Below, piece after piece: positions 1,590 through 60,199 of a stretch of DNA of 64,000 bases. The stretch's first letter is position 1; each line of letters opens with the position of its first letter. The stretch is from Octopus vulgaris (Eukaryota), in NCBI GenBank assembly GCA_951406725.2, contig OX597817.1:57164001-57228000 (forward strand), read 5' to 3'. A program made the position numbers and the translations under genes. Under the pieces are notes generated by a model that worked only from the letters and a program-made list of their open reading frames with translations, ran no database searches and was not told the DNA's origin.

Positions 1590-1775
1590 AGGACATAGTG
1601 GAGGAAGGCATTGGTTAATGCAGTGCAGGCAACTAGAGGTTCCAAGTTCGATTCCAAACAATGCACTGAGGTGAATCACAAGACACCTGAAGAAAGCTCA
1701 AGTGTTCAACAGTCAAGATGTAGTGAAAAGTAACGACGAAGATGAGGACAGCAGTCCGACTAATGTAACACTGTA
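1590..1775 (+). mobile_element. Old relative of the tRNA-head/hammerhead element
   Basis: B-box-like AAGTTCGATTCC, then caagacacCTGAAGAa and aagatgaggaca..tccgactaatgtaa, colinear with the copies at 13.8, 18.9, 54.3 and 56.7 kb. Confidence 0.6.
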
Positions 1776-2729: not shown

Positions 2730-3062
2730 AAACTGGCACTCTTTGGTTGCAACCAATGAGGGTTTCAGTTGGTCCAATAAATGGAACAGCCTGCTCATGA
2801 AATTAACATGCAAGTGGCTGAGTACTCCACAGATACATGCATACCCTTAAAACATAGGTTCTCAGAGAGATTCAGCATGACACAGAGTGTGACAAGGCTG
2901 GCCCCTTTGAAATAAAGGTACTACTTATTTTTGCCAGCTGAGTGGAACTGGAGCAACGTGAAATAAAGTGTCTTGCTCAAGGATACAATATGCCACCAGA
3001 AATTGAACTTGTGGCCTTATGGTAGTGACCCTAATACTTTAACCGCTTAGCCATGCACCTTC
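2730..3062 (-). mobile_element. tRNA-derived SINE, family D
   Basis: Minus-strand tRNA-like head plus CORE-like ccttgagcaagacacttta; second copy at about 53855-54165. Confidence 0.7.
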
Positions 3063-7002: not shown

Positions 7003-7238
7003 CAGTTGTATACTGTCAACTTAACGTGACAGTCCCATAAAGGGAATTACACCACCGCTATTTAGCCCTAGGAAGCATCAACGCTTCCTGTCGGCCTTGA
7101 CACATTTCCTGTGTCCTTATGTTTACAAAGGGGAGACAAGCACCCCCATCCAGCTAAGCCTGCATCCAGAGACATGTTTCTGAGCCTTACTCGTCATCAG
7201 CCTGGAGTAGCATGGCCTGCTAGCTGAAGATACCTAAA
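7003..7238 (-). mobile_element. 236-bp insertion carrying a hammerhead motif
   Basis: Flanked by the 10-bp direct repeat ATATATAATG (6993-7002, 7239-7248) inside the hAT MITE. Confidence 0.7.
7165..7206 (-). ncRNA. Minimal type-I hammerhead ribozyme motif
   Basis: UCCAGG-CUGAUGA-CGAG uaagg CUCA-GAAA-CAU-GUC-UCUGGA: 6-bp stem I, palindromic ACAUGU stem III, GUC triplet. Confidence 0.75.
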
Positions 7239-12995: not shown

Positions 12996-13155
12996 CGACG
13001 GGCTTCTTTCAGTTTCCCTGTACCAAATACACTCACAAGGCTTTGGTCGGCCCGAGGCTACATTAGAAGACATTTGCCCAAGGTGCCACGCAGTGGGAAT
13101 GAACCCAGAACCATGTGGTTCGTAAGCAAGCTACTTACCACACAGCCATTCCTGT
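12757..13155 (-). mobile_element. tRNA-derived SINE, family B (CORE-like, internal (CA)n/(TA)n)
   Basis: Head ggctgtgtggtaag..gggttcattccc, ggcaccttgggcaa motif, tail gactgaaacaagtaaaagagta; at least 12 copies in the window. Confidence 0.85.
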
Positions 13156-13782
13156 GATTATTTTTTTTGTTGTTTTAAGTCATTTTTTAAGTACTCATTC
13201 TGTCAGGCTCTTTTGTCAAACTGCTAAGTTAGAGGGATGTAAACACACCAACACCGGTTATCAAGTGGTGGTGGGGGGGTACACACACACACACACACAC
13301 ACAATGGGTCTATTTCAGCTTCTGTCCATCAAATCCACTCATCAAAGCTTTGATAATGTTATAAATAATAGGCTTCCAAACAATTTCCATCCACCTAATT
13401 CACTCACAAGGCATTTTTGAGTCCTCTGCTATAACACAAGACCCTTACTCAAGGTGCCACACTGTGTGAGAGAACCCCAAATCATATGCATGCAAAGTGG
13501 ATTTCTTGATCATGTACACATGCCTATTTAGCTTAATACATTGCCATATGGCCCTTGGGTACCGTAAGCTTCTAGTGCATGCATTCAAAACAGGCCCTTG
13601 GTGTCTTCCCTGCCTACATTTCCCAGTAGATATTGACTGACAGATTTTCAATTAGGGGCCGTTATTTCCTTCTGCACTTACATTTTGCCTCTGTAGAGGT
13701 TTGCTCATCAACAGGTGTTTAGTCATAGCATTAACTACATTATTCTTACCACTGTCTTGCTTCTTGCGGAATAATTTATAAA

Positions 13783-14090
13783 CATTTACATTATTTACAT
13801 TTGACGGATATTTGTCCTCATCTTGTTTGTTGTTAACACAATGTTTTGGCTGATATACCGCCCAGCCTTCATCAGGTGTCCTGGGGAAATTTCAAACCTG
13901 GGTTCTCATTCCTAAGGTATTTTTCGATGTTATAATAATAATAACATTGAAAAATAGCTAAGGAATGAGAACACCTGATGAAGGCTGGAGGGTATATCAG
14001 CCAAAATGTTAACAAACAAGATGAGGACAAGTATCCGTCTAATGTAAATAATATACATAATTCCTCATCTCTTAAATACAGAACTGTATT
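13783..14090. mobile_element. Inverted pair of hammerhead-bearing elements (Penelope pLTR-like)
   Basis: Minus copy 13783-13940 and plus copy 13930-14090, each with acacCTGATGAaggctg..cagcc; GAAA is decayed in both. Confidence 0.75.
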
Positions 14091-14239
14091 AATTTATAAA
14101 TATTTGTTTATAACGACCCAAAATGTCATCATCATCATCATCGTTTAACGTCCGTTTACCATGCTAGCATGGGTTGGACGGTATAAAATAAAATGCCACA
14201 GTATCAGCCAGACCCTCAGATGCTGGTCCTAATGCACAT

Positions 14240-18200: not shown

Positions 18201-18899
18201 TAATTCAAACCAATGGGAATAAATAAACATAATATTTGACAGAATATTGTGAATACTTAAGGGTTAAGACAAGAACAACATGGGGTGTGATGTTGTGGAA
18301 GCTGATCTTAGCCCCTAATCATTTTCATCAGCTCCAAAATGTTCACAGAAGACAATAACTATGAAACTGGTTGGAGCCACTTAATCAATATAATTAATTT
18401 ATTAATTAAAATAATGAGTGAAAGAGTGTTTAACGGGTTTCGAGATATTTGAAATAGAAATTTAAGATACAAACTTTCATGGCTGTGTGGTGAAGAAGCC
18501 TTAAGCACAGGCATGGCTGTCTGGTTAAGACGTTTGTTTTGCAACCATGTAACATCTTGAGCAAGTGTCTCTACTACAGCCCCAGGGTCAATTAATGCAT
18601 TGTGAGTGCATTTAGTAGACAAAAATTGTATGGAAGCCATTAACACATGCACAGTGTCTCCGTAAAATCATATTCTTTTCTACTCCAGGCACAAGGCCCA
18701 AAATTTTAGTGGGAGGGGGCCAGTCAATTAGATCAACCCCAGTACTCAACCCTGAAAGGATGAAAGGCAAAGTCGACCTCAGCGGAATTTGAACTCAGAG
18801 CGTAAAGTCATATTCACTCATCCGACTGACATATTGATCAGATGTGTGTAGAACAACAAACAGAAACCACATCAAACTGCACTAAACTATATGTTAACT

Positions 18900-19196
18900 T
18901 AATTACATTATTTACATTTGACGAATATTCGTCCTCATCTTGTTTGCTGCTAACACGTTTCGGCTGATATAACCTCCAGCCTTCATTAGGTGTCATAGAG
19001 AAATTTCAAACATGGGTTCTCATTCCCAAGGTATTTTTCACTGTTATTATTATTATTATTATTGTTGTTGTTATTATTATTATTATTCAGGTCACTGCCT
19101 GGAATCGAACTCAGAATCTTGGGGTTAGTAGCCCGCACTCTTAACCACTACGCCATATGCCCGTGTAAATAATGTACATAATTCCTCATCTCTTAA
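18900..19196 (-). mobile_element. tRNA-head/(AAT)n/hammerhead element
   Basis: A box TGGCGTAGTGG and B box GAGTTCGATTCC at 19090-19162; hammerhead-like segment 18952-18994; short inverted terminal piece 19165-19196. Confidence 0.8.
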
Positions 19197-25410: not shown

Positions 25411-26505
25411 CCAAAACTATAAAATCCGTTAACTTCAAATGAATTAAAGTTAACGGAAGTTAACTCGAGTTAAGAGAAGTTAAATGTGATGGAAATTAAT
25501 TAGTTTGGAAAGTTAAATCATTTACGAAAATGTTAACTTCGTTAATTAACAATTAACAGCTTGGTGCCCAAGTTTGGGTACAACCTATCCTTATCATAAG
25601 AGGTGACTAAAAGGGTTAGCATCCTACCATAAAACAACTAAAAAAAGGGTGAGGCCCTAAAATGAGTATGAGAAGACTGACATGGGGCCTGCAAGATTAG
25701 CCCCTTAAGTAGGCAAGGAAATGGCCTTAAAACATTTGTTGTGCTGCTGAGATTTCCTGCAAGACACTGATTCAAAACCCACAATTCCTCAATACAAGAC
25801 CCACCAAAATGGCCATGGTGGTTTAAATGAAGTGTTTTGCTCAAAGACACAATGAATTGCTCAGTCAAGAAATCGAAACCATAATCTTACAATCAGGGGT
25901 CCAGTACTCAAACCACTAAGCCATGCACAGTCATGGTGCTTTAAATTCATTGAGCAACATAAAGTACATAAGTGAATGCAGGCTTCAAGACACTACATGG
26001 ATACCAGTTCAATGCCACTGCACTGCAACGTGAGCATTTTCTATCAAAGCCTTCAGTTGATCAATACCTTTATGAATAGAATTTACTACATGGAAGCTGT
26101 GAAAGACTGGGGAGGGGGTTGCATGGGTATAACTACACTGTGGTATTTATGTGGATAGAGAGGGTAAGTCTGATTAAAATGAGAGCTAATTGCTAATTTA
26201 CGAGAGACCATCCATCCTACCCATAAAAAACTGAAAAAATAGACATGGTGATGAAGATGGTAATGATACATTACAAAATATGTTGTTTTTTTAAAAACAA
26301 TATTATTCTAAAATTAAAAAATTCCAAAATGTGTTTTGCTGTTTTAAGATTCTAAATTACGAAAACATAACCTATTTTGATTCACTGGAATGTTTCAAGA
26401 GATTTTTGGCAGATATTTTGAATATTGTAAAATGTTTCGAAACGCGTCTTATTCAGATAAATTCATCTCAGGATTCATTTACCATTTCCTAGCATCCATT
26501 TCACT

Positions 26506-36760: not shown

Positions 36761-39669
36761 TTATATGTGTGTGTGTGTGTGTGTGTATCAATACTAAGGA
36801 AACATCAAATCTAAATAGGTCCCTTGACAACAATTTGGAACAAGAAAGCTTATAGTTATTATTGATTGTGAACATGGACAAAGGGACGGCTAATAGAAAT
36901 TAAACAGAAATTGGATTCGCTAAATATTCTATTGATTAAATTCTAGCTATCCTATCTAACCTATATATATATACATTGAACAGAATTGGAGAAGATTGGA
37001 AACATGTTTATATTGCAATGCAACTACAAAGATATAGAGAATTCATTGGAAGTAATATTAACAGAGAAACGAATTCACCAACAAACAGAATTTGTCAACG
37101 GTCTTATCTACACCAACCTGTATGTGGCAGTAATAAGTGTGTGTGTGTGTGGTGGTTTTTAGAATTCCTTCACCATATCAATCAAAAGTGATTAAAAGGG
37201 TCGGACAAATTTCGGAACGATCATAAATCATTGCCTCCAAAGTCCTATCCGACCCATGCGGCACACGGGCCTGTGTTTGTGTGTGTGTGTGTGTGTGTCC
37301 ACTTTTCCATTTTCCTGTGGCCAACATCACTTTCCAAGCAAGGCCAGGCACACTTTCACAAGATATTGGAAATGAATAACATTCATTTACAACAACCATG
37401 TGATGTCAAAACAAGGACATGCACACACACACACACACACACAAAGAACAGGCTTCTTTCAGTTTCCATTTCCCAAATCCATTCCCAAAGCTTTGGTTGG
37501 CTCAGACCTACAGTAGAAAACACTTGCTCAAGATGTTATACAGTGGGATTGAACCCAAAACCATTTGGTTGGAAAGCAAGCTTGTTACCACACAACCATC
37601 CCCCCATACACACACACACACACACACATGTTGGCTATTCCTTATTTTCAAGTCTTTTAGTTCCTCTTTTCTTTTATTCATTGCACTGATATTTCTGATG
37701 ACTAAGCAGACCTCTCCTCACATGACCATCCATTTGACAGACAAGAATTGTATGTAGTTGGAAATGGTAATGTTTCATTTTTTTTGTGTGTGTGTATGCT
37801 TTTTTTGTATTATTTATTTGTCCTCTTCATTTCTGCTACATTCTTGTGCAAATAGTTGTTCAGCACCAATTGAGATGGGTTGCTGCCAATTTGCAAGCTG
37901 CTGCAAGTTCATCTCAGGTTTTCAGGTGAATGTCAGAAAACCTTCAGCAGTCAATACCGTACCTCGTAACTAAACAAAGAAAACATCTGTGAGGCCTGCT
38001 AGAAATAGCAACCAAATATCCCTCAAATCACACCCTTTGTCTTTAAAAAAAAAAACAGAACAAACACAATGGATAATGTCATCTAAGATGCACAGATGGG
38101 GTGGTCATGGCTGGAATGCTTTCAATCATGTTTGCTAAATCAATACTAACCTGAAGTTATAGTAACAAAAACAATTCATCTTTTCTCATTATAAATACTG
38201 TCACTGCCCTTAATCCTTTCAAAGTACACAGCAACAATTAGCCCTTGGTAGCTTTGTTAACCCTCTCGGTCAACAACATCATCCGCTTTTTCATGCTTTC
38301 ATGGGTTGGACAGGATTTGTTGAACCACATTTTCTACAACCGGATGCCTTTCCTGTAACCAACCCTCATCCATTTCCAAGTATGGTAACATCTCCCCAAG
38401 ACAAGACATGTTTTTTTTATTGAGGACTGGAAAGAAAGGACACTGCTTGTATGACATTGACACATCTATCACATGGGGCTTTTGTAGAAGACACATGCCT
38501 AAGGTGCACAAAATGGGACTGGACCTCCAAAACTGTGTGATCAGGAAGTAAACTTTTTACCACAAAAGCCATGCCTGATACCTGCTCTCAAAAGAGTTTG
38601 TGTGTTCTCTTGACCCAAGTAATCATCATTTAATGTCCATTGTCCATGCTGGCATGGGTTGGACAGTTTGAGGAGCTGGCCAACTGAGGAGCTGCACCAG
38701 ACTCCAGTCTGATTTGGCATGGTTTCTATGACTGTATGCCCTTCCTAATACCAACCACTTTGCAGAGTGTGCTGGGTGCTTTTATGTGGCAACTAAGGGA
38801 TAGTATCTATCCAATATACTGCTGGTAGAATACCCAATTATTAATACACAAGTGTTCTTTTCATTGCATTGCAATTACATTACCGAGTGTAATAAATGGG
38901 TGAGGGTAAAAAGTTTTTTTACCCTTAATTTATACAGCAAGAAGATGGATGGTATCCAGTGGTAGTATGCATCAACTGTTAGACATTATATTATGTCTAT
39001 CTATTTATTCATTTAAAACAATTATGAGAATATATATATACATATGTAAAGATTGTGGTATTTACATACATATATACCAGTAATTTCTATACTAGAAAAA
39101 AAAGAACAGTTTTGTACAGCTGTTTCTGCCAAGAGGTCACGGTACTTCACATGTTATTTCCATCTTTTCAGTGTACTGTAGTGATTGGTATATAAAATTA
39201 GGGAACTTGGGTGTGCCTCTAGGCTTCATCAGAGTTCAGAAGAGGGTCTAAAAAGTTCAGAGGGCTAATTTATGTAGATATAAATATACATATACACACT
39301 CACATATATATATATATATATACACACACACATACAAAAGAATCAGTTATTAGTAGGTATAGTACAATATTCCCATCAGAGAGTGTATGAGAAATAATAA
39401 TAGTAATATGGAACACCACCTTTAATTGAAGAAATCAACCCCAGTAAGTCTAATACTTATTCTGTCATCACTTTTTGCCAAACAACTAAGTTATGGGGAC
39501 GTAAACACACCAACATTGGTTGTCAAGCAATGGTGGGGGGAACAAACACACACACAAACATATACATATATACGACGGGCTTCTTTCAGTTTCCGTATAC
39601 CAAATCCACTCACAAGGCTTTGGTCAGTCCGAGGTTATTTTAGAAGACACACAGTGTGAATGAACCCAG

Positions 39670-47679: not shown

Positions 47680-47907
47680 TGACGGGATGCCAGCCCATTG
47701 CAGTGTTACCCAAGAAACAGGAAGGAAGAGTGAGAGAAAGTTGGGGCGAAAGAGTACAACAGGGTTCGCCACCACCCTCTGCCAGAGCCTTGTGGAGCTT
47801 TAGGTGTTTTTGCTCAATAAACACACTACACCCAGTCTGGGAATCGAAACCGCGATCCTCCGACGGTGAGTCCGCTGCCCTAACCACTGGGCCATTGCGC
47901 CTCCACA
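47680..47907 (-). mobile_element. tRNA-derived SINE, family E
   Basis: Head gtggaggcgcaaTGGCCCAGTGGttagggc...GGTTTCGATTCCc, followed by a non-tRNA body. Confidence 0.7.
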
Positions 47908-51390: not shown

Positions 51391-51538
51391 TATATGGGCT
51401 TTTTTCAGTTTCTGTCTACCAAATTCTCTCATAAGGCTTTGGTCAGCCCAAGGCTATAGTAGAAGATGCCACGCAGTGGGATTGAACTCAGAACCATGTG
51501 GTTGGTAAGCAAGCTTCTTACTACACACCCACTCCTGC

Positions 51539-52677: not shown

Positions 52678-52835
52678 ACAGGCTTCTTTCAGTTTCTGTC
52701 TACCAAATCCACTCACAAGGCTTTGGTCAGCCTGAAGCTATAGTAGAAGACACTTGCTGAAGGTGCTACGCAGTGGGACTGAACCCTGAATCATGTGGTT
52801 GGGAAGCAAGCTTCTTACCACGCAACCATGCTTGT
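52440..52835 (-). mobile_element. Family B SINE
   Basis: Full copy; others at about 48950-49330, 49580-49945 and 56120-56480. Confidence 0.85.
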
Positions 52836-54289: not shown

Positions 54290-55290
54290 ATTATTTACAT
54301 TATTTACATTTGACGGATATTTGTCCTCATCTTGTTTGTTGTTAACACAACGTTTCAGCTGATATACTCTCCAGCCTTCATCAAGTGTCCAGGGGGAATT
54401 TCAAACCTGGGTTCTCGTTCCTAAGGTATTTTTCTGATATTATTATTATTATGTCGAACACCTGCTGTCACATGTAGGACAAATCCAGCTATCTGCTAAA
54501 TCCATTGTGAAGACTCCGCTGCTGCCCTCCTTTGGGCAGGTAATTTTTTATTTGTCTAGTGGCTGTAGCAAAAGAGGTAGTATGGTGGACCCATTTGAAA
54601 GGGCTAAAAACAGACACTTTCCTCTTTGGCCAAGCCCTCATCAACTTTTGCAAGTTTCACTTGAAAAATAAGTTGAGGGTGGGGAGGGAGGTGTTGCCTT
54701 GTAGCAAGTTTGTTGAAAGGTGGGTGAATGTGGGAAGAATGACCAGCGTGAAAGGATCAATTCTGAGTGTGCACCTGTAAAAAGGAAATCAAAGGAGAAG
54801 GGCTATTTCCCTGTTGTTCAGGCACCCATGGCTTTTGTGGGTTTTTCCATGAGGATCTTAAAATGCTTCCCCTATTGAGAGCTTTAATTTGTTTAATTTT
54901 TAATTGTTATTTATATTGTTTACACACAGTAAAACCCTTTGAATCATCCTGTTTCTGTCTTTAATGTTCTTGCATGTCTTTTAATGTTATTTTATGTAAG
55001 CCCTTGTGGCTAATAAAAGAATTATTATTATTATTATCATTATTATTTTCCTTCTTTCTTCAAATTTTCTTCCATTTCTCGCCGAATATTTTCCATACAC
55101 CTAGGGCAGAGAAGCTCATTGTATGCATTCCCAGATTACACACACAAATTCCCAAGTAAAATATGTATTTAAAAAATTAATAAATAAATAAATTCATGAA
55201 TTTATTATTATTATTCAGGTCACTGCCTGGAATCGAACTCAAAATCTTGGGGTTAGTAGCCCACACTCTTAACCACTACGCCATATGCCA
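54290..55290 (-). mobile_element. tRNA-head/hammerhead element split by a LINE insertion
   Basis: Hammerhead part 54290-54452 and tRNA head 55201-55290. Confidence 0.8.
54453..55047 (+). mobile_element. L1/Tx1-like LINE 3' end
   Basis: VAVAKEVVWWTHLKGLKTDTFLFGQALINFCKFHLK..FVERW; AATAAA at 55012; (TTA)n tail. Confidence 0.6.
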
Positions 55291-56675
55291 TAACGTTGAG
55301 CATTAACTGGTGAAATGTTCAAGCCATAGAATCATGGAAAAACAGATGATGATGATGTATAGCTAAGCAAGGTTAGGAGAGGAAGGGTGCAACCAGGAAA
55401 ACCAATTTAGCATGTGTAGGTGGTAGCATTTCTAGGTAAGAGTGCACCCATTCTGAATAACATAGCAAATGTCAGATCATATTGACTAACAGTGAATCAG
55501 TCTAAACAGCATTCTGTGTGCTGACAGCATGACCAACACACAGGATTAAACGATGCAGGCTATTAGGATGGTGTGTTTAAATATTTGATGCCTAGTTACC
55601 TAGGTAACCTAATTAGTGATTAGGCCAGGGGATCAAAAGTGATGGTGGCAAAGATAGAAAGTGAAGCAGATTACATGAAATTAAGACAACTGCTTTATTT
55701 GACTGAATGTATTTTTGTGGCTATGCAAAATATATATACACAAGTGTGTGTGTGTGGCCCAAATGAGATCAATCAATAATGAGGGAAACCACCATTTTCT
55801 GCAGCAAATAATTAAAAGCAAAAGCCTTCTCAGCCTCCATGCTGCCAGCAGGTACAAAAAGATGAAAAATCTGGCTGTTCACACAAGGAGGTGGAGAGTT
55901 GTCAAAGAAGCTAAAAAACTGGCCACAAGGACACCTGTGACATCTTCAAGGGAAGTTCTGTGGATGCTTGACATGCTACACATTGCAGCCAAATTTCTTC
56001 GAATCTATACGAAGTAACTGAATGAAAAAATGACGACAGACATAACTGGAACACCTTTGACCATAGGTATACTTAGCATGGGTTCACCTGGAATTAACAA
56101 TTGAGGGAGGATTGTGTTTCATCTTTTGCTTGCTTCAGTCATAAGATTGTGGCCATGCTGGAGCACCACCTGCAAGAATTTCTAGTCGAATGAACCAACC
56201 ACAATACTTTGCTAAACTGCTAAGTTACAGGGATGTAAATACACCAACACTGGTTGTCAAGCAGTGGTAGGGGGACAAACAGACACAAAAAAACACACAT
56301 CTATAAATATACAATGGGCTTCTTTCAGTTTCCATCTATCAAATCCACTCCCGAGGTTTTGGCCAGCCCAAAGCTATAAGCCATAGTAAAAGACTTGCTG
56401 AAGGTAGCATACAATGAGACTGAACCCAGAACCATGTGATTGGGAAACAAACTTCTTACCACCCAGCCACACCTATGCCTATAGTAGACATCATTAAAGG
56501 AAGTCACAGACTTCCTTGCCAAATATGATTGGGTGACGGGTGGATTAAAATTTTGCAGGAACTTACAGATACCATGGGTGTGGATGTGGGGTAGACTAAC
56601 ATCACATCAAGATAAAAATTAGGCAACAACTTACAGAGATCAAACTAAGCTTGGTCTGTTAACTTTCAGTAAACA

Positions 56676-56846
56676 TACAGTTCTATATTTAAGAGATGAG
56701 GAATTATTTACAATTGACAAGATATTTGTCCTCATCTCGTTTGTTGATAACACGTTTCGGCTGATATACCCTCCAGCCTTCATCAGGTGTCTTGGGGAAA
56801 TTTCAAACCTGGGTTCTCATTACTAAGGTATTTTTCGATGTTATTG

Positions 56847-56878
<32 letters not shown>

Positions 56879-57044
56879 TAGGTCACTGCCTGGAATCGAA
56901 CTTGGAATTATTGATGCAATGACCCCCCCCCCCCCCAAGACAAGATATATACACAAGTTAATGTTTGTTTTTATGTTTAGATATACATTAGTTAAGAGCA
57001 CAGGCTACTAACCCCAAGATTTCGAGTTTGATTCCAGACAGTGA

Positions 57045-57094
<50 letters not shown>

Positions 57095-57238
57095 TGGAGA
57101 AATACCTTAGGAATGAGAACCCAGGTTCGAAATTTCCCCAAGACACCTGATGAAGAAGGCTAGAGGGCATATCTGCCAAAACGTTGTATTAGCAACGAAC
57201 ACGATGAGGACAAATATCCGTCAAATGCAAATAATGTT
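56676..57238. mobile_element. Inverted pair of tRNA-head/hammerhead elements
   Basis: Minus copy 56676-56905 and plus copy 56990-57238. Confidence 0.85.
56749..56791 (-). ncRNA. Minimal hammerhead motif with an intact core and a 3-nt deletion near the cleavage site
   Basis: GACAC-CUGAUGA-a-GGCUG gagggUAUAU CAGCC-GAAAC-GUGUU. Confidence 0.6.
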
Positions 57239-60199
57239 CAGTAACCATGTTGAGAAAGATAACTTCGTTGTCTTCCTCGAAATCTTATTTGGCCTTGGGG
57301 AAATGTTAATTTGCTTGGAAACAGAGTTAGTGACAAGGGAATCTCAATATAGAAAATCTGATTCAAAATGATTAGTATACACACACACACACATTTTGTT
57401 TTGGTATTTCGTTGGCAAGATTCTTGATGTGAATTCCTGTGTTGAAACATTTTGTGTCTTAGGAGTGTTGTTATACCAGCAATAAACACAAGCAGTGAGT
57501 ATATCATTATTGATGTAATGACCCTCCCAAAACACAAGATATATACACATGTTAAGGTTTGTTTTTGGGTTCAGTTATACATTGATTTCAAGGTTTACTC
57601 TATACTTTTGTATACATTTTGTTTCTTTTATTTGTTTCAGTCATTTGACTGAGTATCGGCCAGCTAAACCATCATCCAATGGTTTAAACTTGCTGAGACT
57701 TCAAAGTCACAGTTAACAATATTCTTGTTCGAAAAATACAAACACACAACTCAAGAAGAGAAAAACTTTAATAAATATACAAAAAAAAAAACGTTAGCTG
57801 CCGAACTGGTGCCGAGGAAGGATTGATAAACAGAGCTACACCACTGCCAAACCAGGGGGATGGGGGACATAGATAATGCCAGTGAAGTTGATGACTCAGT
57901 TTCTTTATATGAAGTTATTTACTTACTAATTTTCTGAATCTAAAAAAAAAATTTATTTTTCTTCTTCTTGCATCTTTCCTGATTAACATGTCAGCTATCT
58001 TTGCCTCATCTAATCCTTGTACTGGTAATTCCTAGCAAATGTCAATAACCTTGAAAAAGACATTGTGCCAAACTGAATGGTGGATTCAACAGAGGCACAG
58101 CCTTTGCTGGTCGCCGCTCACTGAACACATTGTTCCTAAACACTTCTAGATTAGCCCACTAAAAGACGGGATGGTCCCAGGTGGAACACCCTTGATTATA
58201 AATCTACCCAATCAGAGATGACAACATGAAGGTAAACAACAGTTAGTGATTGAATACATCGACTAAGATTTGGTTAATGAAACCTGCTGCCAACATGAAG
58301 GAAACCCATTTTATGACTACCACTCTTCCATCAGTCTCATAGATACATCATCAGCATCATCATCATCATCGTTTAACGTCCACTTTCCATTCTGGCATGG
58401 GTTGGACAGTTTGACTGAAAACTGGCAAGCCAGGAGGCTGCACCAGGCTCCAGCATTGAAACAAATAAACCTGGCTCTCACAGGAATCCAACTTATTAGG
58501 TCAATAATGTAAACCAATCTAGTATTCTGCAGGACAAAGTCATTAGTGTTAATTAGAAAGTAGCGCTATAATATAGTTAAGATGACGTAGTAACGAGACT
58601 GACTCAAAGAAAAAAAAATGCAACAAACAAGCTGTTTACACACTGTTTTAGTGGTAAATCAGTTTAAATCCGAGAGCAATCAATGAACTGTGAAATAAGT
58701 ATCATCATCATCGTCATCATGTATATGACTCAGAGTTGTGGAAATACCAGGAGGTGATGTCCAACAGAAAGCTTTTCTGTGTACTTAATTTTAATTACAC
58801 AGACAGAATTAAATGATAGACATTATAAGACATGTGATAACTGAATAATGACACAGTTTCATTGGTGGAGCAGGAAATCTCTTGGTTTACCAGGGTTTGT
58901 GGAATCAGTACAGAAAACTTTTGACTGACTCATAATTCATGGTAACAAAGACCCCAACTTCTCAATTTGAAGTCAGGCTAATTATTATTTTTTTTATTGA
59001 TTGAAAACACACAACATTCATGATCAATGTGAATCATCAGGTTACTTTTTCGCATCCTAATCTGTTAAAATTTAGATATAAAGGCTAAAGCTAGATTAAG
59101 GTTGCTGTGGAATACTCGGTCACTTATCCTATAATTCTTTAAGTGGGCAGATTTGTTCATTGAACAATCAAAATAACCACAGCATATGAGTCCACAGTCA
59201 CCATCGATGAAGGAGGAAGTGAATGCTCTTAGCTAAAGAAAGGGAGGTCCCTCCTAAGACCCACACTTTACTGGTGAAATGAGAAGTGGAAGTCCTTAAC
59301 TACACACTTAAATGGCAAAGTAGGCAGAGGCTGTGGCTATCAAGAATTATACATTCAATAATGAAGGTGATGATGACTATCATTAGCTACACAATAAGTG
59401 GGTGGTGGACACCCTTAGCAGAAATAAAAAGATGGTCGCCCATTCATTGATAAAATAGTAGGTGAATGACATTGATAAAGTGGGAATAAAGCACCAACCA
59501 ATCATGGCCGTTTGCCAGCCTCCTCTGGGCCCTGTGCCAGTGGCATGTAAAAAGCACCCACTACACTCACGGATTGTTTGGCATTAGGAAGGGCATCCAG
59601 CTGTAGAAACACTGCCAGATCAGATTGGAGCCTGGTGCAGCCTCCTGGCTTCCCAGACCCCGGTCGAACCATCCAACCCATGCTAGCATGGAAAACGGAC
59701 GTTAAACAATGATGATGATGGCAATGTGGATACACACTTCAAATGATGAATGATAACATGTTTCTTTACCAGAACAGTGTTCTAGGTAAAGCACTAAATA
59801 TCCTCTGTTTTAAGTTGTCAAAGAGCAGATTAAAACAAAAAGAGGTTTTCTAGTTCATACCCAACCAATAGCAATGCATTGTTGTATCATTGGGCAAGAT
59901 ACTCAACTCTCAAATGGCACAGCTGATCTCATGTTTGATAGGGATTACAGAGTAGAGAACAAGCTCTAACGACAGCTCTAAAATGCACAAGCAATTGTCA
60001 TTTAGGCCTATGTCAGCCGACAGCATTCTGACATTCCAGCATACCATATCTAGCACTAGATTATACAACACTTTTCTTTTCTCACCTCCACCCCGCTTTG
60101 TTTAGCCCCAACTCAACTCTTATCCAGCAAATCTACAATCAAAGACATTCCAGCTTCAATCATTTGAAGCGGAGATATATATATGCACACGCACACACA

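Follow-up and report, generated by a model that had tools for sequence, protein, structure and literature searches.

SINEs are classically partnered with the enzymes of LINEs. For Penelope-like elements (PLEs), the described integration marks consist of an inverted truncated arm and a tail of 30–40 nt found on one side only, and in Pen2a the first codons of the ORF reside in the pLTR and its tail, with a 5' palindrome being another described feature of pLTRs (PMC3846280). In Poseidon_Ac, the ORF begins at the hammerhead, reverse transcription sets out from +111 to +118 and two internal RT start sites flank the tail; its hammerhead depends on protein and can be dispensed with during insertion in vitro (PMC11167929). 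Pairs of minimal hammerheads on opposite strands, located 100–700 bp apart, have already been reported (PMC4209133). The minimal hammerheads described in print cleave weakly and as dimers only. Promoters of characterised PLEs overlap an intron, and a splice donor is found near the end of the pLTR in Penelope and Chlamys-3. The combination of a Pol III promoter with a hammerhead is already known from the schistosome repeats Sm-alpha and Sj-alpha, as are tRNA-derived promoters in the terminal repeats of TRIMs and non-autonomous hammerhead elements tied to PLEs. In Octopus vulgaris, SINEs account for 11.6% of the genome and 893 of the 900 recently active SINE families are unclassified.

The window investigated here is a stretch of 64,000 nucleotides of O. 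vulgaris DNA (GCA_951406725.2, contig OX597817.1, positions 57,164,001 to 57,228,000 of the forward strand), to which all coordinates refer. Within this window, six copies of a repeat, termed family A, align over a common body, with a pairwise identity of 83–91% among the five that are free of large deletions. All six had been listed in the initial annotation and were found by alignment at the same places, but they go back to only four insertion events, two of which are inverted pairs. The order of family A runs from a tRNA-like head through an (AAT)n tract and a 48-nt linker to a minimal type-I hammerhead and the 3' end, and each of the four heads is followed by a body in the same orientation. 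The tail that had been quoted for the element is present, but the terminus is formed by an optional 32-nt tail located past it, which had been overlooked. The four units contain the following features:

13772–14105, whole unit of inverted pair 1, bounded by a target duplication (13772–13787 and 14090–14105, 16 bp, 1 mismatch)
13786–13942, minus strand, and 13932–14088, plus strand: the two arms of inverted pair 1, both cut in the AAT tract
14057–14088, plus strand: tail of inverted pair 1, on the plus arm only, with none on the minus arm
18899–19163, minus strand: full-length unit at 18.9 kb, with the head starting from tRNA position 1 and no tail
19145–19155 (A box) and 19101–19111 (B box), minus strand: promoter boxes of the 18.9 kb unit
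18952–18994, minus strand: hammerhead of the 18.9 kb unit, with G5 changed to A and a 3-nt deletion
19165–19196, plus strand: short inverted second arm of the 18.9 kb unit, consisting of the 3' end plus the greater part of the tail and abutting the head
54291–55289, minus strand: full-length unit at 54–55 kb, single and without inverted arm, its AAT tract split by about 750 bp of unrelated DNA
54291–54452, minus strand: body of the 54–55 kb unit, with the hammerhead at 54344–54389
55202–55289, minus strand: head of the 54–55 kb unit, with the A box at 55273–55283 and the B box at 55229–55239
56665–56676, plus strand: left copy of the target duplication of inverted pair 2 (56676–57238), 12 bp, 1 mismatch
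56676–56707, minus strand: optional 32-nt PLE-type tail of pair 2, on the minus arm only (arm 56676–56908), the plus arm being without tail
56749–56791, minus strand: minimal type-I hammerhead of the pair 2 minus arm, core intact, cleavage triplet affected by a 3-nt deletion
56792–56839, minus strand: linker of the pair 2 minus arm, holding the ATG (56820) of a frame that crosses hammerhead and tail
56840–56878, minus strand: (AAT)n tract of the pair 2 minus arm
56879–56908, minus strand: 5'-truncated tRNA-derived head of the pair 2 minus arm, with the B box only (56892–56902)
56909–56985, no strand: filler of 77 bp between the arms of pair 2, with 81% identity to 57506–57583
56986–57048, plus strand: 5'-truncated head of the pair 2 plus arm, lacking the A box and with a single change in the B box
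57049–57093, plus strand: (AAT)n tract of the pair 2 plus arm
57142–57190, plus strand: decayed minimal hammerhead of the pair 2 plus arm, with a 3-nt insertion, G12 changed to A and changes in the stems
57237–57248, plus strand: right copy of the target duplication of pair 2

The plus arm of pair 2 spans 56986–57237 and ends at 57237 with the tail absent. The roughly 750 bp at 54453–55201, which lie within the AAT tract of one copy, are unrelated DNA that probably consists of other repeats.

The anatomy of these insertions closely resembles the marks left by PLEs. An inverted 5'-truncated second arm is found in three of the four family-A insertions, and in all three the tail of 32 nt is confined to one arm, being partial at 19.2 kb. 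Target duplications of 12 and 16 bp flank two of the four units and the other two show none above background (7 bp); among 3000 random flank pairs, 12 bp was reached by 0.6% and 16 bp by 0.07%. Pair 2 constitutes one event, composed of the minus arm with its tail, the 77-bp filler, the plus arm without tail and the 12-bp duplication. Its filler resembles DNA located about 270 bp beyond the unit, which is its sole other match in the window, and the identity of 81% is similar to the 83% between the two arms of the pair. The filler was thus likely templated from nearby DNA at insertion by what would amount to a template jump. Family A displays two fixed 3' ends that are not repeats together with inverted arms, and not the poly-A or simple-repeat 3' end in a single orientation that is left by LINEs. 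Inverted arms, one-sided tails and target duplications go beyond the evidence on which the initial annotation had proposed a mobilisation by a Penelope enzyme, and, as judged from sequence, family A has very probably been mobilised in this way.

A strict pattern of A box and B box at tRNA spacing has two matches in the window (19155 and 55283), compared to a mean of 0.0 in 200 shuffles. The boxes quoted previously are thus real in the copies at 18.9 and 55.2 kb, but no intact A box exists within 56676–57238. The head can be aligned gap-free with a tRNA called by ARAGORN in another locus (L046), and within the window it is itself called as tRNA neither by ARAGORN nor by Rfam; its A and B boxes are kept at consensus, the acceptor stem is lost and the cloverleaf decayed. 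Complete heads start no more than about 4 nt from tRNA position 1 (two of two in family A, one of one in family B). Since consensus boxes were kept without a cloverleaf and complete heads begin at about tRNA position 1, the tRNA-derived head likely serves as promoter for RNA polymerase III, and transcription of headed copies by this polymerase appears plausible. A short palindrome at the 5' edge of the head, found in both families, provides an alternative cause for these 5' ends, and processing by RNase P is disfavoured as their origin because the acceptor stem is lost. T4 terminators are missing from all six copies, but since 59% of shuffles are likewise without one, their absence is not significant and was dropped as evidence for Pol III. 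Two octopus gene models exit the element right after the same codons at an apparent splice donor, which suggests that a splice donor might be located near the end of the pLTR as in Penelope and Chlamys-3; the mRNA of the protein would in this case be a product of Pol II even if the template RNA were made by Pol III. Other tRNA-like SINE heads in the window are located at 2996–3055, 13094–13146, 25869–25925, 47837–47895, 51477–51520 and 52774–52821 (minus), and no hammerhead was found within the next 330 bases of those at 3.0, 25.9 and 47.9 kb.

The motif defined by the majority letters of family A pairs GACAC with GUGUU in stem I and GGCUG with CAGCC in stem II and also has an extra A, an ACGU palindrome and a GUU triplet, in agreement with the type-I fold with 5-bp stem II, loopless palindrome and GUU site that had been proposed for the consensus. 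The motif carries every listed feature of PLE minimal hammerheads, including the core, the extra nucleotide, G10.1-C11.1, the palindromic helix III and an NUH triplet. In combination with the boxes and the gap-free tRNA alignment of the head, these features uphold the assignment of the repeat as a PLE-type minimal hammerhead joined to a tRNA-derived head. As had been observed, none of the copies is intact (zero of six pass a generic type-I descriptor), but the defects are not all attributable to CpG decay or a 3-nt deletion, as G5 in the 18.9 kb copy and C3 in the 54.3 kb copy are altered and the 57.0 kb copy carries a 3-nt insertion. Two of the six copies share an identical 3-nt deletion at the cleavage triplet (18952–18958 and 56749–56755), which could reflect recurrent slippage or a non-cleaving subfamily. 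Searches with Rfam covariance models, which covered decayed copies only, gave no hammerhead match at E values up to 5 in the window and up to 10 on two copies. In public contigs, the core is restored by the majority letters in four of four runs, with CUGAUGA accounting for 89–98% of the depth at 18987. The three bases missing in the 18.9 kb copy are present in gapped contigs of the four runs (21, 18, 10 and 6) and also in loose contig ends of three runs (71, 104 and 33 contigs).

The covariation of stem I was assessed in nine sequences, comprising three window copies, all five distinct loci with the same GAAACGTT, and L009. In this hand-picked set, which includes six of 43 distinct motifs and leaves out the other 37, and where sequence relatedness and selection limit the test, four of the five pairs change on both sides and 77.8% are paired; the score was reached by none of 500 shuffles and exceeds all slid controls. 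Stem I was absent from the search pattern save for its first base, whereas stem II was itself the search pattern. The stem covariation on which the proposed hammerhead had been made to depend is thus present for stem I across families, and no compensatory change was found between families A and B. With respect to folding, the target structure of the monomer (–12.3) is 3.5 kcal/mol less stable than the minimum-energy fold (–15.8), in which the cut site is concealed by a downstream hairpin. In the minimum-energy folds of monomer and dimer, stem II is kept and stem I is not, and both are without a double hammerhead, which is not representable in the folding model. Self-cleavage by the family-A motif would presumably be slow and proceed as dimer or with the help of protein. 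Elsewhere in the window, a lone hammerhead-like core at 7170–7205 on the minus strand (CTGATGA...GAAAC with an ATGT palindrome and GTC) is unrelated to family A and possibly represents the end of another PLE, and positions 39216–39236 on the minus strand weakly match the 5' half of the hammerhead (E 4.2) with no matching GAAA half.

The relationships of the repeat extend well beyond the six copies. The 18.9 kb copy is aligned by 8528, 12792, 2523 and 743 public contigs in four runs from three organisms. Family A is a high-copy family, whose unit of head, (AAT)n, hammerhead and 3' end is found in thousands of contigs, with a summed contig depth that is similar for head and body bins. The six copies do not represent the full set of relatives in the window, as a seventh, divergent one had been overlooked:

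1590–1774, plus strand: older related family B, with a tRNA-like head directly joined to a decayed hammerhead (1682–1725) and a homologous 3' body, and no AAT tract

Family B was identified as a relative by profile search (head E 1.4e-5, body E 2.2e-7) and is aligned by 95, 117, 133 and 66 contigs in four runs, in all of which single contigs bridge its head and hammerhead core. In its majority motif, the core and stem II are kept, whereas the free positions have changed: position 7 is an A, loop II differs, the triplet is GUA and stem I comprises 3 bp. Since head and hammerhead are joined in family B without an AAT tract, their link predates the tract and is not an artefact of nesting. At position 1677, a third, headless upstream sequence joins the family-B hammerhead in 6 contigs of X22 and 12 of X21 and is a candidate for a partner or sister element.

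Among proteins, translations of the element match predicted proteins of Octopus sinensis and O. bimaculoides. Three Octopus gene models (P0001, P0002 and P0163) use the element as an exon, either by exonisation or by annotation error, where it forms the first exon (cysteine-rich membrane protein, dystrobrevin beta) or the last (tectonic-3). Many unnamed short ORFs (P0126–P0162) show further related hammerhead families, several of them arranged as direct, partial tandem repeats whose unit measures about 43 codons. Family-specific patterns were found in no viral or metagenome contigs. A relaxed pattern retrieved from metagenomes 57 loci that share this stem II, many of them evidently animal DNA, one bacterial locus that was judged to be a chance match, and no viral one. 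None of these 58 loci matches the head significantly (best E 0.77), and ARAGORN calls a single tRNA among them, about 1.5 kb from the motif. Of their 43 distinct motifs, 18 have a stem I of at least 3 bp and, as counted by a simple script, helix III is palindromic in 11 of the 18. In two loci (L014 and L044), the same hammerhead design immediately follows a decayed RT gene; the identity of this gene is drawn from homologues that include RT + GIY-YIG proteins, as Pfam and PDB gave no useful match for the ORF pieces of L014 themselves. Head-to-head pairs of this hammerhead type also occur on unrelated contigs from animals at three loci (L007, L012 and L042), which shows the inverted anatomy to be general.

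Sequence upstream of the head and the reading frame downstream of it both bear on the question whether the repeat is part of a longer element. Beyond the head, family-A contig ends agree between runs of two organisms (X1 0.49, X22 0.45, X9 similar, range 0.45–0.54). The corresponding ends of family B match those of family A at the same offset, with an agreement of 0.82 for seven contigs in X1 and a weaker one in X4. By eye, 22 of 30 positions match between the two families, among them a 9-mer and a short palindrome in which one change is compensatory; the upstream sequence is read as the majority of loose contig ends over 30 letters, and run X6 instead reads a plain palindrome. The peptide implied upstream of the head has no confident match to the C-termini of PLEs. 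Downstream, the frame starting from Met crosses the hammerhead and the tail, with about 122 nt between its ATG and the first 3' end. From the ATG at 56820, it meets a stop at a decayed CpG in the 56.7 kb copy and is open in gene model P0001. In the tail, a similar motif recurs among related unnamed peptides, which a constraint at the RNA level could also account for. With respect to a link to RT/GIY-YIG, the window has no match to the tested PLE ORF pieces, and protein searches gave no RT-bearing protein with either element frame (3 matches for 22 candidates; 41 matches, none of them a PLE of RT length; 1 in 1705), negatives that carry little weight, given that assemblies mask or break repeats. 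We consider it probable that the repeat is a pLTR. For the complete proposal, where this pLTR belongs to a longer, probably protein-coding PLE, the head is likely a Pol III promoter and short uncut transcripts are copied as SINE-like insertions, we see about even chances. It is possible, though somewhat short of probable, that an octopus PLE lineage has captured a tRNA gene as Pol III promoter and kept it through at least two families, yielding huge SINE-like copy numbers.

Some of these observations could also be explained by a true SINE dependent on Penelope, in which a master element that codes for no protein and has a Pol III promoter of its own would have borrowed the 3' part of a PLE to be copied in trans by the PLE enzyme. 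Such an element would be in line with complete heads that begin at tRNA position 1, with the similar depth of head and body, with the missing ORF link in protein searches and with the headless second upstream sequence on the family-B hammerhead, which is expected for a pair of SINE and partner; moreover, PLE cis-sequences can mobilise other RNA in trans (PMC3846280) and non-autonomous PLEs exist. We still regard it as unlikely in light of the homology shared by both families upstream of the head, the frame that is open through the tail and the requirement of Poseidon_Ac for RNA to +172, past the RT start sites (PMC11167929), a stretch that would be absent from ordinary inserted copies. The independent non-autonomous SINE of the initial annotation is doubtful: copies in the window begin at the tRNA-derived head, but sequence continues upstream of it in two families and the layout is that of a pLTR with the start of a reading frame. 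Alternatively, the tRNA could be a passive relic in a pLTR transcribed by Pol II, with copies beginning at the head because the palindrome there makes reverse transcription stop or fold back. This palindrome is found at the 5' edge of the head in both families, self-priming at such sites has been proposed for Adineta Penelopes (PMC3846280), and the intron overlapping with known PLE promoters and the apparent splice donor shared by two octopus gene models point in the same direction. The palindrome is short, however, and both boxes are maintained at consensus and at tRNA spacing despite the decayed cloverleaf in a head that is retained in both families, which renders this explanation even less likely than the previous one.

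It had also been proposed that self-cleavage generates the mobile RNA. The cut site is located between the head and the 3' ends and is spanned by six of six family-A copies, which implies that templates were uncut or re-ligated, and the pairs are inverted and not direct tandems, so that no cis double hammerhead is possible on one strand; the proposal thus finds no support in these copies, and from these sequences the hammerhead would follow to be inherited pLTR equipment and not the maker of templates. A route as in retrozymes, where tandem transcripts cleave themselves as dimers, circularise and are copied by a PLE enzyme, appears very improbable for the same reasons. Although its palindromic helix III is typical of dimer-cleaving motifs, animal retrozymes have been proposed to be PLE derivatives and unnamed proteins contain a related peptide in short tandem repeats, direct tandems of the kind seen in retrozymes are found in none of the four family-A insertions in the window, no copy is permuted at the cut site and hammerhead cleavage is dispensable for the insertion of Poseidon_Ac in vitro (PMC11167929). 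The poorest prospects are held by a nested chimera, where tRNA SINEs ending in (AAT)n would have repeatedly been hit by fragments of a microsatellite-targeting PLE. PLEs do favour microsatellites and AT-rich sites and the AAT tract did attract another insertion at 54.4–55.2 kb, but this explanation is largely refuted by the body that follows all four family-A heads in the same orientation, by family B, where single contigs bridge head and hammerhead core in four of four runs and no AAT tract exists, and by gene model P0002, which also joins the frames of head and hammerhead.

In the preferred reading as a pLTR, an RNA would start at the head and continue through the hammerhead and past the tail into the body of the element. 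Extrapolating from the biochemistry of Poseidon, the RT/GIY-YIG protein of a PLE would nick AT-rich DNA on both strands and initiate reverse transcription from two internal sites, one yielding tail-less ends and the other tailed ones. The outcome would correspond to the units found here, in which two 5'-truncated arms meet head to head and one of them bears the tail, along with target duplications. Copies that bear a head would derive from uncleaved or re-ligated RNA. Inserted copies would be without the RNA downstream of the start sites and thus, unlike those of a true SINE, probably be dead on arrival.

In the literature covered, which included work on cephalopod repeats and lay outside subscription papers, Repbase and Dfam, we found neither a pLTR with a tRNA promoter nor a tRNA SINE mobilised by a PLE. 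The repeat would, if our interpretation is correct, be either the first Penelope with a Pol III promoter or the first tRNA SINE mobilised by Penelope, and part of the octopus SINE expansion would have been made by Penelope. A tRNA-headed repeat with Penelope anatomy would either extend the partnership of SINEs to PLEs or exemplify a PLE that copies its own end in SINE-like manner. It would also offer a natural substrate for questions concerning the promoter of the template RNA, the fixing of its 5' end and the role of the hammerhead in PLEs if templates are uncut. The annotation of octopus repeats may be affected, with copies also showing up as exons in octopus gene models.

Compared to described systems, the closest resemblance is found in the pLTRs of Poseidon_Ac (PMC11167929) and Adineta Pen2a (PMC3846280), which share a repeat of about 200–300 bp with a hammerhead and the start of an ORF, an inverted 5'-truncated arm, an optional tail of 30–40 nt, target duplications and a 5' palindrome. 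The distance of about 122 nt between ATG and first end in the octopus repeat is close to the RT starts at +111 to +118 of Poseidon_Ac (PMC11167929). In contrast, the promoters described for these pLTRs are TATA/Inr-like or overlap an intron, whereas the octopus repeat begins with a tRNA-derived head containing A and B boxes, and it is a probable pLTR as judged from the repeat itself, while in the other two the repeat is linked to an ORF. The minimal hammerheads of metazoan PLEs (PMC4209133) are similarly of type I, with a helix I of 4–5 bp, an extra nucleotide before helix II, G10.1-C11.1, palindromic 15.2/16.2 and no loop 3. They differ in helix II, which comprises 7–8 bp in schistosome families and 5 bp in octopus, and in the U that family A has at the cleavage position, and the accessible parts of this source report no tRNA head. 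Schistosome Sm-alpha and Sj-alpha also place a Pol III-type promoter before a hammerhead and exceed 10,000 copies, but their hammerhead is canonical and active, they form tandem arrays and their monomers are released by cleavage (PMC6765202, PMC2770079), unlike the minimal motif, dispersed inverted units and uncut templates of the octopus repeat. The TRIMp3 elements Helenus, Ajax and Cassandra equally harbour a Pol III promoter derived from a small RNA inside their terminal repeat, although as non-autonomous LTR elements with PBS and PPT (PMC10886601), whereas octopus contains a Penelope-type repeat with a hammerhead. Finally, animal non-LTR retrozymes (PMC7229834; bioRxiv 10.64898/2026.07.22.740005) are short non-coding repeats with a type-I hammerhead that are likewise tied to the pLTRs of PLEs, but they are defined by direct tandem arrays and circles, and the accessible text of these sources makes no mention of a tRNA head.
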